DNA of 64,000 nucleotides, from NCBI GenBank assembly GCA_964016885.1, contig OZ024742.1:108252001-108316000 (forward strand). Direction: 5' to 3'. A program made the translations under genes and the position numbers. The notes under the pieces are model-generated. The model saw only the letters and a list, made by a program, of their open reading frames with translations. It searched no databases and was not told the origin of the DNA. Below, piece by piece: positions 3,318 through 49,011 of this stretch. Every line of letters begins with the position of its first letter. Position 1 is the stretch's first letter. Origin of the DNA: Eledone cirrhosa (lineage: Eukaryota).

Positions 3318-3368
3318 AGTGTCAGAAGATCCCGTTAAGGGTGAAGGCAGCGATTCCTTGCTTAAACT
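3318..3368 (+). ncRNA. Type I hammerhead-like motif, CAGAAGA family (decayed, GAAG)
   Basis: agtgt-CAGAAGA-tccc gttaa gggt-GAAG-gca...tgc-TT-aaact, in a ~200 bp TA-flanked module repeated at 5752, 33721, 37469. Confidence 0.55.
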
Positions 3369-3514
3369 TTAATCTGTTATTTTAATAAATATTTGCTCTA
3401 CGGTTCTTATATATTTGATATATATTTATCCTTATCGAGCACTCTTTCGATTTTAGTCTTCAAATATGTTATTATTACTACATATATATATATATATATA
3501 TATATATATATATA

Positions 3515-4420
3515 ATGAAAAATTGAACAGGGACAGAACAGAGAGGCAGTACGATAAATGTTTATTAAATTCAGGCTCAGGAGAGTGGGGTGTAGGTGGG
3601 GGACGACGTTTCGGGCATAAGCCCTTCTTCAGGTGAGAAGTGTGTGGGAACAGAGTTCAAAAGGTGTGTAGGGGAGTGGTGGAGAGACATATAGCGAAAG
3701 GAAACGGTGCGAATGAAAAATTAACAAATAAAGACATAAATATAATAAATAATAAATAAAAATAAAGCATGATCAAAATACAAGGAATGAGAAAATTTAA
3801 AAATAAAGGCATGATCAAAATAAACTGAAATTAAAAGGGGGGTAAACAGGTGGTGGAAGGGTGTGGGGTGAGTAGGGGTGGTGGCGGGTGGAGTGGGGAG
3901 AGGGAGACGGGGTGTCCGAGCGGGGAGGGCTGAAGGTGGTGTGTGTAGTTAGGTGTGCGTGTGTGTGTGTGTGTGTGGATGTGAAAGTGAGGGTTGGGGG
4001 AAGAACGGGGTTGCATGTTCAGGAAGGTGTGTGTGGGGGTGTTTTTGTGGGTTGGAGGGTCTGTGCGTGTGTGGATAGGGGGTGGGGGGAGAGGAATCAG
4101 GGGGCTGAGGGTGTAAATATGTGGTGGGAAGCACGTGTGTGTGGTTTAAGCGTGTTGTGGGTGTGGGTGGCGTGTGGATGAAAAAAAAATGTTGGGGGTG
4201 TGTGTGTGGGTGAGTTATATAGGTGATGGTGTAAGAGGATGGTTGAAAAGTTGGTAAGTTACACGGATGTATGGAGATTTTGGTTAGAAGTCAATAACGC
4301 GTGTGGGTAATCCAAGAAGCGGTGGTCGGAAGAGGAGAGATGTGGGGTGCGCGCGCAACAGGAAGTGGTCAGTAATGGAAGTGCTGTGGTCAGTTGGTGC
4401 TGAGACAGTGGTCGGAAGGG
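3515..4420 (-). mobile_element. PLE-like 3' region with hammerhead-like core
   Basis: Minus strand CTGAAGA-agggc ttat gccc-GAAA-cgtcg-TC (about 3602-3632) then AATAAA and (TA)n; stem I not evident; terminus shared with 28115-28190. Confidence 0.5.
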
Positions 4421-4648
4421 CACATATATATATATATATACACACACACACACATATATATATATTTATAAATAGATTTACATATGTATATATATATATA
4501 TAATATATATATAATATATATATATATTTATTAAAATAAATTATATTTATCCTTATCGAGCCCTCTTTGGATTTTAGTCTTCAAATTTATTATTATTACT
4601 ATTATATATATATATATATATATATATATATATATATATATATATATA

Positions 4649-4910
4649 ATTGAATATATGAGAGGGATGAACACCGATACAAGTATACATGTGTTCGAAT
4701 TGCAAATGACCAAGTTAGATCTGTTGAAAAATAATAATTAAATTAGTATTTTTCAACCTAACTAACTAGGTCATTTGCAATTCGAACACATGTATACTTG
4801 TATCGGTGTTCATCCCTCTCATATATTCAATTGTATTACACGGCTCGGAAAGATTCCCTTCCTTGAGCTATTTAATTGTAAAAGACTATTTTGAGTTTCT
4901 AACTCAATAT
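4649..4910 (+). mobile_element. TA-flanked family D module with fold-back
   Basis: Palindrome about 4649-4832, then a tail homologous to 8960-9075 and 21200-21328. Confidence 0.7.
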
Positions 4911-4959
4911 ATGATATATATATATATATAAAGATATACATATATATATGTATATATAT

Positions 4960-5085
4960 ATTCAATAGAGAAACGCTTCTCACAAGACTAGAACTGTTTC
5001 ACTCGGGACAAATCATCAGGAAGCCGCTTCCTGGTGATTTTTCTCGAATGAAACAGTTCTAGTCCTGTAAAAGCCTTTCTATATT
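4960..5085. ncRNA. Back-to-back pair of type I hammerheads (CAG-ttctagtc-CTG family)
   Basis: Palindrome; arms read gcttc-CTG(A/G)TGA-stem II-GAAA-CAG ttctagtc (C/T)TG-..-(g/a)aagc; both arms carry mutations. Confidence 0.7.
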
Positions 5086-5446
5086 AAATATGTATACTCT
5101 GCTTTGTATTGAGTACCTTACTTACTGAGGTTAGCCTCGATTGAACGCGGGATGAACTTATATGTATATATATATATAAATATTTATATATATATAAATA
5201 CATATATATATATATATATATATACATACATAAAAAATATATATACATATGCAAAATTATACACACATACGCATATATATATATATATATATATATATAT
5301 ATATATATATATATATATATATATATATATATATTAATTCAAAATATTAACAAAATAGGTATTCTTGTGATTGAATATTAACAAAATAGGTATTCAGTGA
5401 CTGAATCTTAACCATATACCATGTCATGGTATGTCATGCATCATCT

Positions 5447-5513
5447 TATTTTATCTGATGAGGACGTACTGTTGAACTTAAATCAATACCTCTGAAATAT
5501 GTATAATAAAATA
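5447..5513 (+). ncRNA. Type I hammerhead ribozyme
   Basis: tattttat-CTGATGA-stem II-GAAA-tatgta-TA-ataaaata; 8-bp stem I; related to 43582, 43777, 45239, 48950. Confidence 0.8.
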
Positions 5514-5797
5514 TAATTGATCCCAAGAATATCTATTTTGTTAATATTTTGAATTAATATTACTAACTCTTGAAAACCTTATTTGTTGAGTGCTTACAAT
5601 CTATTGTAAAACTCATTCTTTGATGTATTAATTGAACCTTGTTTAACTTTTAAACATATATATATATATATATATACATTTATATATATATACATATATA
5701 TATACATTTATATATACATAGAATCGGTGCTTTCACACTTAACGGGATCTTCAGAAGATCCCGTTAAGTGTGAAAGCAGCGATTCTTTACTTAAGCA

Positions 5798-6135
5798 ATA
5801 TATATATGTATGTATCTGTTATATATATACATATATATATATATACATATATATATATATACATATATATATATATATATATATATATATACACATATAT
5901 ACTAGATATACTAATTCTTTATATAAGTATATATATATATATATATATATATATATATATATACACACACATATATACTAGATATACTAATTCTTTATAT
6001 AAGTATATATATATATATATATATATATATATATATATATATATATATATATATATATATATATATATATATATATATATATATATATATACACACACAT
6101 ATATATATATATATATATATATATATATATATACT
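5798..6135. repeat. (TA)n microsatellite complex
   Basis: Long interrupted TA tract containing a duplicated 30-bp spacer. Confidence 0.95.
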
Positions 6136-46617: not shown

Positions 46618-46709
46618 GATTCTACAGGACTAGAACTGTTTCATTCTTTAGAAATCATCAGATTTCTGATGATTTCTAAAGAATGAAAGAGTTCTAGTCC
46701 TGTAGAATC
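46618..46709. ncRNA. Back-to-back hammerhead pair in a palindrome
   Basis: Centre tcatcag-attt-ctgatga; arms CTGATGA-t ttc taaa gaa t-GAAA-(c/g)ag ttctagtc ctg-TA-gaatc. Confidence 0.8.
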
Positions 46710-46864
46710 TCATCTATATTAAAACTATATATATATATATATATATAAATATATATATATATATATGTATATATAAATATGCAAGAGCACGTATGGATCT
46801 TTACGTGTATATATGTATATGTATATATGTGCGTATATGTATATATATGTATATATATATGTAT

Positions 46865-47360
46865 ATATAAGTATGTATGCGTACATACATATATGTATAA
46901 AGACGTACAGTAGTATGTATATATATATATATATATACATACATGCACACATATATATATGTACGTATGGATTCACCGAACATTTATAAAAAATGCTCGG
47001 TGTGTTTGTAAACAAACATCCCGAATTAAGCCGTACAGTGTCTAGCAACCATCGTTGCTCATTTGTTCAACACTGACAAAGGAACGCTGTACTAGTTTCA
47101 AGCTTATTAGCTATCGTCTGCAACGTATACCTTCCTGCCAGATGGTTGAACGTCTGAAAGTATATACTTTCCTTATGCATATCAACGGCTGAGCAGCCTA
47201 ATTTGCATATGGAGTGAGTTAATCGGCCGGGGTACCGAACACGATAAACGGAAAAAATGAAAGGAAATTTCATTTCTCACTCTTAGTACGGCTGTTACTT
47301 AAATATAAGTATGTATACGTACATACATATATGTATACAGACGTACAGTAGTATGTATAT
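46865..47360 (-). mobile_element. Retrozyme-like ~440-nt unit, about 1.1 copies; hammerhead 47085-47125 (CAGACGA)
   Basis: Terminal redundancy 46869/47307; inverted relative of 48145-48655. Confidence 0.75.
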
Positions 47361-47379
47361 ATATATATATATGAAAGAC

Positions 47380-47586
47380 GATCGACTTTCGTCAAATCGG
47401 ACCGAGGGAACAATGTTTCCGTTGGTCTTTCCAATTGCTAATACTATCTATCGGTCGCAACTCCAGGTAGAAGGAGCAACGTGAAATAAAGTGTCTTGCT
47501 CAAGGACATTACGCATCGCCTGGTCCAGGAATCGAACTCACAACCTTACGATTGCGAATCCAATTCTCTAACCACTCAGCCACACG
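47380..47586 (-). mobile_element. tRNA-derived SINE, family C
   Basis: Reverse complement: A-box tggctgagtgg, B-box gttcgattc, tgtccttgagcaagacacttt. Confidence 0.8.
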
Positions 47587-48048
47587 ATATATATATATAT
47601 ATATATATATATATATATATATATATACATATACATATATATATATATATATACATATACATATATATATATATATATATACATACATATATATATATAT
47701 ATATATATATATATATATATATATATATATATATATATATACATACATATATATATATACATACATATATATATATATATATATATATATATATATATAT
47801 ATATATATATATATATATATATATACATACATATATATATATATATATATATATATATATATACATACATATATATATATATATATATATATATATATAT
47901 ATATATATATACATACATATATATATATATATATATATATATATATATATATATATATATACATATACATATATATATATATATATATATATATATATAT
48001 ATATACATATACATATATATATATATATATATATATATATATATATAT
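47587..48048. repeat. (TA)n microsatellite, ~460 bp
   Basis: TA tract with CA interruptions. Confidence 0.95.
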
Positions 48049-48144
48049 ACGTATGGATTCACCGAACATTTATTACAATGCTCGGTGTGTTTGTAAATAA
48101 ACATCCCGAATTAAGCCGCACAGTGTCTAGCAACCATCTGGCCA

Positions 48145-48655
48145 TATTTAAGTAACAGCCGTACTAAGAGTGAGAAATGAATTTTCGTTTCATTTTTTCC
48201 GTTTATCGTTTTCGCTACCCCGGCCGATTAACTCACTCCATATGCAAATTAGGCTGCTCAGCCGTTGATATGCATAAGGAAAGTATATACTTTCAGACGT
48301 TCAACCATCTGGCAGGAAGGTATACGTTGCTGACGATAACTAATAAGCTTGAAACTAGTACAGCGTTCCTTTGTCAGTGTTGAACAAATGAGCAACGATG
48401 GTTGCTAGACACTGTACGGCTTAATTCGGGATGTCTGTTTATAAACACACTGAGCATTGTAATAAATGTTCGGTGAATCCATACGTACATATATATATGT
48501 GTGCATGTATGTATATATATATATATATATATATATATATATATATATACTACCGTACGTCTGTATACATATATGTATGTACGTATACATACTTATATTT
48601 AAGTAACAGCCGTACTAAGAGTGAGAAATGAAATTTCCTTTCATTTTTTCCGTTT
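48145..48655 (+). mobile_element. Retrozyme-like ~450-nt unit, about 1.1 copies; hammerhead 48325-48365
   Basis: Terminal redundancy 48150/48601; cgttg-CTGACGA-taac taataa gctt-GAAA-CTAG-TA-cagcg. Confidence 0.8.
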
Positions 48656-48949
48656 ATATGTATATATATATATGTATATATATGTATATGTATATATATG
48701 TATATATATATGTGTGTGTGTGTGTGCGTGTGTGTGTGTGTGAAACATATGTAATATGTTATTAAATATATTATGATGCAATAATGAGTCTTTGTTCCTT
48801 TACTCTAATACTATTGATACTCTGCTCTGCAAGAGCATCGAGAGCTCACCCAGGATACCGCCAACGGACGCAATTATCTTTCACCTCTACATATAGATAT
48901 ATATACAATTATATTAAATAAATGGAAACTATATTTATAAAACCATATT

Positions 48950-49011
48950 TATTCTATTATATATATTTCAAGGGTACCAAAAATTTTGGTACGCTATCAT
49001 CAGATAAAATA
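48950..49011 (-). ncRNA. Type I hammerhead ribozyme
   Basis: tattttat-CTGATGA-tag c gtaccaaaa..tttggtac c ctt-GAAA-tatata-TA-atagaata. Confidence 0.85.

Follow-up and report, generated by a model that had tools for sequence, protein, structure and literature searches.

The association of hammerhead ribozymes with Penelope-like elements (PLEs), the targeting of TA runs, and the inverted ends and tails of insertions have all been published. Metazoan PLE pseudo-LTRs are described as carrying minimal type I hammerheads (PMC4209133), and the Hydra clade of PLEs as a limited number of short (<3 kb) families, most of them cnidarian (Craig et al. 2021, PMC8557442). The kind of system reported here is therefore already known, and no new mechanism is involved. 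We analysed a 64,000-nt stretch of the Eledone cirrhosa genome (GCA_964016885.1, contig OZ024742.1, positions 108,252,001–108,316,000, forward strand; hereafter the window). Judged from sequence, its motifs very probably adopt the type I hammerhead fold, with predicted self-cleavage, and mark the 3' ends of PLEs and of non-coding derivatives likely relying on those elements' enzymes, as found beside (TA)n genome-wide.

All 11 positions cited in a first-pass annotation carried a type I hammerhead, in the order stem I–CUGANGA–stem II–GAAA–stem III–UH–stem I'. Those at 5447, 7636, 26560, 43777, 43990, 45239 and 48950 passed a strict descriptor, 10904 and 28297 passed once a long stem II was allowed (93 and 82 nt), and at 14523 and 48325 the core is canonical and stem II weak. 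In the dinucleotide-shuffle control that the annotation had proposed, the strict descriptor (stem II up to 170 nt) found 14 motifs in the window; 100 local shuffles averaged 0.47 and never exceeded 2. Using the motifs as BLAST queries and reading out each site, we counted 36 near-complete motifs (14 strict, 13 canonical-type ones carrying a defect, 5 belonging to a U4A family and 4 whose core is U3-A8) and a further 7 half motifs, which together form 21 families in our own grouping; about 23 of the 36 look catalytically intact by core reading. An earlier estimate of ~29 motifs in ~12 families was thus fair to low. The motifs and elements, in window coordinates, are:

3317–3369, plus: degenerate family A hammerhead (U4A core), ending a truncated Hydra-type PLE 3' UTR (~2860–3480) with tail
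3585–3645, minus: family V hammerhead, stem I lost
4975–5074, unstranded: family B, two degenerate head-to-head hammerheads, inverted insertion
5447–5513, plus: family C hammerhead, apparently intact, stem I 8 bp
5717–5794, unstranded: family A, palindrome of two truncated arms
6525–6594, plus: family D hammerhead, mutated core (family period ~530 nt in 2/6 copies)
6934–7006, minus: family E hammerhead, apparently intact, within inverted arm
7433–8053, plus: permuted unit of family E, non-coding, 645-nt period including TA run; hammerhead 7636–7708
8845–9633, plus: permuted unit of family X, non-coding, 553-nt period; U3-A8 hammerhead 9236–9412, stem II region ~83 nt, stem III a long hairpin
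10445–10491, plus: family B hammerhead, stem III with one mismatch
10724–11530, minus: permuted unit of family G, non-coding, 726-nt period, terminal redundancy 81 nt; hammerhead 10904–11023, stem II 93 nt
12356–14632, plus: family H long non-coding unit, inverted tail 12356–12526; hammerhead 14521–14582
14767–15138, unstranded: family I inverted pseudo-LTR pair; hammerheads 14878–14916 (minus) and 14992–15026 (plus)
15640–19434, plus: decayed Neptune-type PLE, RT pieces, GIY-YIG 18202–18921, 3' pseudo-LTR hammerhead 19286–19320
20057–20127, minus: family J hammerhead, GAAA box mutated
21689–21833, unstranded: family K, palindrome of two half hammerheads, preceding a Hydra-type RT–EN remnant (21880–23100)
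24150–24250, plus: family O hammerhead, U3-A8 core, damaged stem III; family O 3' halves at 28995, 32895, 33493, 33536 and 45083
24356–26660, plus: Hydra-type PLE, 5'-truncated; EN remnant ending at 25018, then a long 3' UTR and terminal family M hammerhead 26560–26615
28297–28407, minus: family N hammerhead, apparently intact, stem II 82 nt
30937–32841, plus: second family H element; hammerhead 32574–32633, GAAA box mutated
32953–33364, plus: family P non-coding permuted unit, 307–345 nt including TA run; U3-A8 hammerhead near 33210, position 16.1 mutated in this copy
33719–33773, plus: family A, U4A-core hammerhead with stem III closed, preceded by inverted tail 33624–33721
37469–37519, plus: family A hammerhead, U4A core
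38445–38480, plus: family Q minimal hammerhead, U3-A8 core, terminating a 3' UTR-like body from 37573
43458–43882, unstranded: family R inverted insertion, TA on both sides; inverted tail and pseudo-LTR (hammerhead 43582–43653, minus) joined to forward pseudo-LTR (43777–43847, plus)
43945–44256, minus: family H short insertion, inverted tail and hammerhead 43990–44047
44310–44397, minus: family S hammerhead, stem II 61 nt
45239–45303, minus: family T hammerhead, apparently intact
46617–46710, unstranded: family B, two hammerheads overlapping at the inversion centre
46870–47355, minus: family U retrozyme-like unit, ~422–430 nt; hammerhead 47084–47126, position 4 mutated
48050–48657, plus: family U retrozyme-like unit, opposite arm; hammerhead 48324–48366
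48950–49011, minus: family T hammerhead, apparently intact

Chance matches in AT-rich sequence have virtually no probability as an explanation. The strict count was 30 times the shuffled mean, which already refutes this reading for the strict set, and the motifs belong to families present in many copies. Allowing one free deviation in the core made the descriptor too noisy, at 5.6 hits per shuffled window, so single weak variants may be chance. Among the single-base core variants scanned, U4A alone clearly exceeded shuffles; the U3-A8 variant needed a stricter threshold to exceed them (5 versus 0, 0 and 0). In Rfam scans, no hammerhead family appeared among the 150 listed of 211 window matches, and 8900–9635 gave 9 weak matches, all unrelated.

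The covariations quoted in the annotation (atac/gtat versus aacac/gtgtt; acacca/tggtgt versus gtacca/tggtac) are present in the sequence. Across 32 family T rows, 92.2% of cells were paired (slid controls 39–54%), and stem covariation was supported: these rows, which are related, held 38 double-change cells against 14.5 expected, a level reached in 0 of 500 shuffles, although the tally of pairs that showed such a change did not reach significance (111 of 500). The core was less variable than its flanks in 8/13 families, the difference not being significant in A, X, M, H and I. Several monomers folded no better than shuffles, and the lowest-energy fold of the 10904 motif differs from the hammerhead. 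U4A was fixed in 30/30 full copies of family A, which has ~70,000 copies genome-wide. An alternative is that the motifs are true PLE relics that no longer cut, either because the fold is kept for another task (protein binding or positioning the start of reverse transcription) or because variants, chiefly U4A, have lost catalysis. We consider this rather unlikely. In its favour, a natural U4C variant has considerably lower activity in vitro, Naiads thrive without hammerheads, and family A showed no significant excess of core conservation (2/330 versus 21/1681). Hammerhead mutants also left PAc insertion in vitro unchanged (PMC11167929), which counts against the role proposed below. Against loss of function, the 3-8 pair covaries to U-A in the four window families with a U3-A8 core, a change known in active ribozymes, and the remaining core and palindromic loop III are retained across families with unrelated stems.

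The PLE hammerheads described in PMC4209133 share several features with those seen here: the type I fold, a stem III that is short and palindromic, a predominance of single motifs derived from truncated PLEs, opposite-strand pairs 100–700 bp apart, many families per genome and the U3-A8 variant. Stem II inserts of 60–115 nt, a ~70-nt stem III hairpin and a fixed U4A core were not found in the accessible text of that study. Our literature search, which covered the main text of papers, likewise found no U4A core fixed in ~70,000 copies, although one may be in print.

By sequence context, 8 of the 21 families are 3' pseudo-LTR ends of 5'-truncated Hydra-type or Neptune-type PLEs, three of these links being weak. 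The linked families sit 0.4–1.5 kb behind RT/GIY-YIG remnants, mostly Hydra-type and in one or two cases Neptune-type. The EN end lay upstream of the hammerhead by 852–939 nt in family A (4 places), 362 and 376 nt in I, 1042–1346 nt in M (7 independent loci), 1153 and 1092 nt in R, and 1452 and 1542 nt in T; families O, Q and C were linked more weakly (one to three loci each, at unequal distances). Copies of PLE-linked families have variable 5' ends, two fixed 3' ends ~85–150 nt apart and commonly an inverted arm. Both 3'-end classes, 5' truncation, the inverted 5' arm and an optional 3' tail were seen, with one tail per insertion in 131/141 cases and flanks marking insertion into (TA)n. The tails measure ~85–150 nt, compared with 30–40 nt given for other PLEs (PMC8557442). 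Most PLE copies are truncated and probably dead on arrival. For families B, J, K, N, S and V, the sampled loci showed neither an ORF link nor a period, and these six were left unassigned.

A PF01541 match lies within the window, and at genome locus L176 an 847-aa RT–EN frame stands ahead of a family M copy. This frame and its aligned relatives have DKT, a CxCX5C linker, no CCHH, and CxxC and CxH near the C terminus. By these motifs, with CxxC and CxH around E, N residues, the main ORF type fits the Hydra clade as described in PMC8557442, which also has canonical hammerheads and (TA)n insertion; an assignment to Poseidon was dropped. Here, by comparison with that description, ORF remnants of this type occur in 17/70 genome samples and 3' UTRs reach 0.9–1.5 kb. 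Family M, with a 2.5-kb frame and a ~1.3-kb 3' UTR, exceeds the <3 kb 'generally' given for the clade, a non-diagnostic length. Three aligned database relatives have N-terminal RWK or RWR; the L176 frame differs and may lack its true start. Searched with this frame, Pfam gave no match and PDB a single one (E 0.93), and a pairwise BLASTP comparison with P0003, a Neptune-type relative, lacked significance. The 15640–19434 element resembles Neptune-type PLEs (PMC8557442) in its CX4CxxC linker, CxxC inside GIY-YIG, inverted 5' pseudo-LTR pair and minimal hammerhead, with no notable difference from that description. Two candidates were rejected: a 4.3-kb repeat at L170 is a duplication of a larger stretch, and the apparent link of family E to a PLE ORF (L171–L173) is an insertion into the TA run behind another element.

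Another seven families are retrozyme-like, that is, non-coding, circularly permuted or tandem units of 0.3–2.6 kb resembling non-LTR retrozymes. With the eight families behind RT/EN remnants, they bear out the earlier view that many PLE-related, TA-targeting hammerhead families coexist here. Periods were 723–735 nt in G (18/32 copies), mostly 640–705 nt in E (17/33), 418–437 nt in U (25/29, most from one 10-kb tandem array of 422-nt units, L181), 307–345 nt in P, 553 nt in X and ~530 nt in D (2/6). Family H had been taken for a truncated coding PLE, but in 13/24 loci its own hammerhead, not an ORF, lies upstream, at a hammerhead-to-hammerhead distance of 2.0–2.6 kb. RT/EN HMM searches of the E, G, X, P, U and H units found no match, and the longest Met ORFs in E, G, X, P and U were 13–88 aa.

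It is improbable that all families are plain truncated PLE pseudo-LTRs whose periods arose by adjacent re-insertion or DNA-level tandem duplication, with no RNA circle. PLEs do ordinarily occur in partial tandems (PMC8557442), an array such as L181 may expand by unequal crossover, and our genome-search loci were best full-length matches, a choice that favours long copies. However, dispersed copies on many chromosomes hold closely to one period and continue past the junction into their own 3' end (G, 723–735 nt), units lack an ORF remnant, and when folded as circles, U, G, X and P do better than shuffles (z −5.6, −6.5, −3.9 and −4.9; E only −1.8). The retrozyme-like reading agrees with published metazoan non-LTR retrozymes (PMC7229834; bioRxiv 10.64898/2026.07.22.740005), described as non-coding units of 51–972 nt, tandem or monomeric, each bearing a single type I hammerhead, pairing with itself as a circle and found alongside PLEs. 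The present units differ in the 2.0–2.6-kb length of family H, the TA run inside E, P and U, the U3-A8 core of P and X, and the PLE-type inverted arms of dispersed copies. No cephalopod appears in the accessible text of those two sources.

Genome-wide, 69 evenly spaced samples gave 87 canonical motifs per Mb (60 in 690 kb, versus 1–3 in shuffles), or 110 per Mb with one core variant. We estimate a load of ~0.2–0.4 million copies, compared with 2,000–9,000 per genome in PMC4209133, where another descriptor was used. Each of the eight families searched genome-wide had 40 or more close copies elsewhere. The window is thus no local archipelago, and a special locus, rich in ribozymes and serving the host, is very unlikely. 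The window did reach 203 per Mb, about twice the average, where the first genome sample gave 109 per Mb, but resampling gave P ~0.07, single 10-kb samples held up to 6 motifs, and motif count tracked TA content (Spearman 0.72, 58 loci); the flanking 10-kb stretches held 0 and 1 motif. The window is thus typical of the genome. A TA run lay within 200 nt downstream of 83% of 71 sampled motifs, versus 20% of background positions. The proposal that much microsatellite junk is ribozyme DNA was overstated: TA runs, 5% of the window and likewise of the genome sample, are targets, and motifs make up ~1% of DNA (110 per Mb × ~80 nt). The islands as a whole are indeed element DNA, about half of 3318–49011 by a hand tally of boundaries. 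The Schistosoma mansoni genome spans ~0.4 Gb. At that size its Sm-alpha family, with ~38,500 BLAST candidates (Copeland et al. 2009, PMC2770079), would reach roughly 100 per Mb, a precedent for the density here; that load is one SINE-like family, whereas dozens of PLE-related families contribute here.

Published PLE biochemistry (PMC11167929, PMC8557442) suggests how such copies could arise. The element endonuclease would nick both strands of a TA run, and reverse transcription would begin at two internal RNA sites just beyond the ribozyme, one per strand, usually ending early. Joining of the two cDNAs would leave, between TA runs, a short stub or palindrome that bears a hammerhead. A transcript spanning two same-strand hammerheads could be cleaved to unit-length RNA, probably in dimeric form if its stem III is short and palindromic; these RNAs may circularise and be copied by the PLE enzyme as retrozymes. 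The ribozyme would then matter in the few source copies, most genomic copies being likely dead on arrival. Against this scheme, Xenopus retrozyme dimers showed no cleavage in 8/9 cases.

More tentatively, and with doubt outweighing confidence, this genome may have the largest hammerhead load we found reported, ~0.3 million, because Hydra-clade PLEs and retrozymes radiated. One top family would cut with a U4A core, for which we found no report, and another would be a 2–2.6-kb retrozyme. Units with an internal TA run might sow their own target sites, tying heavy (TA)n to the ribozyme-bearing retroelement cycle, and the one-tail rule could be a trace of two-site, two-strand priming. Our literature search found no report of a comparable load in a cephalopod-type genome, of very long stems II and III or of a 2–2.6-kb retrozyme-like unit; the text of the O. 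vulgaris repeat annotation paper contains 0 mentions of hammerheads.

A 3-Gb animal genome can thus hold hundreds of thousands of hammerhead folds, with none among the Rfam matches listed for the window. The fixed U4A core, the four U3-A8 families and the very long stems are natural high-copy test cases for the purpose of PLE hammerheads. Young families with many inverted insertions offer a direct count of reverse-transcription starts per strand, which bears on the PLE insertion step; in the Neptune-type element at 15640–19434, both arms of inverted insertions shared the 3' marker in 5/5 cases.

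A descriptor for the type I hammerhead (canonical core, with minimum stem lengths of 3 bp for I, 2 for II and 3 for III) found 12 motifs in the window with stem II limited to 75 nt, whereas 100 local dinucleotide shuffles averaged 0.23. With stem II of up to 170 nt it found 14 against 0.47 in shuffles (maximum 2), bearing out the first-pass annotation, which had claimed an archipelago of hammerheads here. Nine of the 11 positions cited there fall within this strict set of 14, whose members have the type I core and three stems, open at stem I; in the other two, 14523 and 48325, the core is canonical and stem II is weak. 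Motif BLAST queries and site read-out brought the window's tally to 36 near-complete motifs plus 7 halves, which we grouped into 21 families (lettered A to X); bases 1–56,000 were inspected by eye, and judged by their sequence about 23 motifs look intact. An Rfam scan of the window gave 211 matches, and the 150 of them that were listed include no hammerhead.

To place these counts in the 3.0-Gb assembly (the window's chromosome is 379 Mb), we sampled 70 evenly spaced 10-kb stretches with round coordinates; one of them (L181), a tandem array, was omitted from the density. The remaining 69 held 60 canonical motifs (score at least 10), or 87 per Mb (bootstrap 59–116), compared with 1–3 motifs in eight shuffles. 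Adding 16 motifs of a family with A at core position 4 (U4A) gave 110 per Mb (78–145). Extrapolated from 0.7 Mb, this amounts to about 0.26 million canonical motifs and 0.33 million in total across the assembly (range 0.18–0.43 million). By the same rule the window has 13 motifs (203 per Mb; resampling P = 0.07, first 58 samples), and the idea that it is a special locus was not upheld. The 10-kb stretches flanking it hold 0 and 1 motif. Motif number tracked TA content (Spearman 0.72, first 58 samples), and a TA run followed the predicted cleavage site within 200 nt in 83% of the 71 sampled motifs that had enough sequence downstream; the corresponding figures were 20% for background positions and 31% within motif-bearing samples.

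The proposed link to Penelope-like elements (PLEs) and TA targeting was supported: ends of coding PLEs and non-coding units coexist and TA runs are enriched. Families B, J, K, N, S and V are unassigned. Two coding elements lie in the window:

15640–19434, + strand: decayed Neptune-type PLE whose endonuclease (EN) domain is of GIY-YIG type (PF01541)
24356–26660, + strand: second coding-type PLE, Hydra-type, ending in the hammerhead at 26560

The Neptune-type element is 40–58% identical to database proteins with reverse transcriptase (RT) and EN, and its cysteine motifs match those given for Neptune; its 3' end is the hammerhead at 19286, and an inverted pseudo-LTR pair lies in front. Across loci, the distance from the end of an EN remnant to the downstream hammerhead on the same strand was 852–939 nt for family A (4 places), 362 and 376 nt for family I, 1042–1346 nt for family M, that of 26560 (7 independent loci), 1153 and 1092 nt for family R, and 1452 and 1542 nt for family T, that of 48950. 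Families O, Q and C had weaker links to EN remnants.

At L176, a locus outside the window, a family M copy lies behind a frame of 847 aa. The frame contains DKT, a CxCX5C linker, and CxxC and CxH close to the C-terminal end, with CCHH absent; in a published description (PMC8557442) these are the diagnostics of the Hydra clade, to which the frame probably belongs and nearly all families of which target (TA)n according to passages of that paper. Pfam did not recognise the frame, which has 429 database relatives; Argonauta hians is the source of one of the main ORF's two named close relatives (43% identity), and the genome's abundant SINE resembles Octopus SINEs; together these point to a probable octopod host. 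An HMM built from 60 of the 429 matched three window remnants and 17 of 70 genome samples (25 kb), and a Neptune-type HMM matched 5 of 70 (7 kb). A third Hydra-type EN remnant (53886–54359) lies outside the hammerhead range of the first-pass annotation, and no hammerhead was detected behind it. A different PLE-type element, with RT frames of 242–319 aa in a repeated inverted arrangement, was seen at L171–L173 (G000:C1704); no hammerhead was detected in its own terminal repeat.

The non-coding units were recognised by a fixed period, at which a copy, upstream of its motif, runs into its own 3' end. Such a period was present in 25/29 copies of family U (that of 48325), 18/32 of family G (723–735 nt), 17/33 of family E (14 of these at 640–705 nt) and 2/6 of family D; it measured 307–345 nt in family P and 553 nt in family X. 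Family H (14521), found by the far end of its body, had its own hammerhead about 600 nt upstream in 13 of 24 loci, and at two loci the hammerhead-to-hammerhead distances were 1978 and 2629 nt. An RT/EN HMM search of the E, G, X, P, U and H units gave no match. The blind sample L181 consists of 10 kb of 420–428-nt family U repeats, 15 of which satisfy the descriptor; dispersed copies of this family are permuted or short tandems. As circles, units folded better than shuffles for U (z = −5.6), G (−6.5), X (−3.9) and P (−4.9), and more weakly for E (−1.8). A TA run lies inside units E, P and U. These units fit the non-LTR retrozymes described in animals in parts of PMC7229834, for which an excerpt of a preprint (bioRxiv 10.64898/2026.07.22.740005) gives lengths of 51–972 nt. 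A palindrome at 4649–4912 and a fragment at 21186–21330 share a 3' hairpin like that of the 553-nt unit and are probably pieces of a sister retrozyme, hammerhead not included. At L202–L206 (G000:C25, ~6.72–6.75 Mb), a family H insertion and a short minisatellite both sit within a ~10-kb tandem duplication.

Stem conservation was assessed in family T, in an alignment of 32 related rows (31 of 39 copies, those with a recognisable 5' core, plus 48950; where a locus had two arms, the second was left out). In it, 92.2% of cells pair, against 39–54% in slid controls. Covariation of the kind noted in the first reading was significant by cells with two-sided change (38 versus 14.5 expected; 0 of 500 shuffles), but not by pairs with double change. 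The core departed from the family majority less than the flanks did in families E, G, U, R, T, B, Q and C, whose copies are not independent (11/550 versus 757/5711 differences in T); core variation was not significantly lower in A, X, M, H and I. Monomer folding z was −2.8 for 26560 and −2.2 for 43777, and near 0 for 7636, 28297, 48325, 24150 and the U4A motif. At lowest energy the U4A motif folds into the hammerhead's three-way junction, and 10904 does not.

Family A carries the U4A core in 30/30 full copies and has a closed stem III. Its density, 23 per Mb (10–40; 69 samples), would correspond to about 70,000 copies. The paper texts that we searched hold no report of U4A; a natural U4C variant has much lower activity in vitro, according to passages of Perreault et al. 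(PMC3088659). C at position 4 was also seen in several unrelated families (loci L032, L081, L086 and L186), where it may reflect either decay or another fixed variant. Families O, P, Q and X have the U3-A8 core, a variant already published. Family X combines a stem II region of ~83 nt with a stem III hairpin of ~70 nt, and stem II spans 60–115 nt in other families. Further families at L033, L059, L073 and L054, one canonical and one U3-A8, have a stem II of 103–115 nt and a loop III palindrome in common.

Copies have variable 5' ends and 3' ends of two classes ~85–150 nt apart, the stretch between which we call the tail; many also have an inverted arm on the opposite strand. Among 141 inverted insertions of six families, many at query-selected loci, the distal tail was on exactly one arm in 131, on neither in 9 and on both in 1 (one-tail counts: R 20/20, A 36/36, H 23/23, B 10/13, O 33/40, E 9/9). 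Contrary to this, both arms reached the marker in 5/5 insertions of the Neptune-type family I, which is outside the total; either the marker is non-distal or the Neptune-type clade differs. The tail arm often extends beyond the proximal site, by up to ~190 nt, and the two arms therefore overlap. Passages of Craig et al. (PMC8557442) describe an inverted copy with a tail frequently at one end only. Parts of Frangieh et al. (PMC11167929) report that a purified PLE protein, a predicted dimer, cleaves AT-rich DNA on both strands and extends each of them, and that two internal RNA start sites delimit the tail. The two strands may be primed differently, one at the distal site and the other at the proximal one.

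Published hammerhead counts, which rest on differing descriptors, include 4,000 minimal motifs in coelacanth and 9,000 in Xenopus (from excerpts), more than 6,000 in a coral (16 families), as many as 120,000 in axolotl and, from passages of Copeland et al. 2009 (PMC2770079), ~38,500 in Schistosoma mansoni, where density is similar to that in our Eledone cirrhosa sample. Parts of the O. vulgaris repeat paper report young Penelope families, and a term search of that text found no mention of hammerheads; the passages of hammerhead reviews that we searched held nothing further on cephalopods. Known biology accounts well for this finding, which is real. Its novelty lies in how large the population is, in the dominance of Hydra-type elements, in the variant ribozymes and in the long retrozyme-like unit.

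The window also holds other repeats. A young non-LTR retrotransposon occupies 54636–64000 in tandem, its two copies 97–99% identical; ORF1 with a zinc-knuckle-like motif is followed by endonuclease and RT, with a Pfam match to RVT_1 and a weak one to Exo_endo_phos. A SINE-like repeat of ~175 nt occurs in seven copies, several within PLE bodies. It and a LINE-like family are placed as follows:

3020–3193, 25905–26087, 36191–36373, 42628–42820, 43090–43173, 49205–49382 and 51477–51652: SINE-like copies
3–392, 1139–1366, 39977–40473 and 49641–50667: LINE-like family, decayed fragments 74–81% alike
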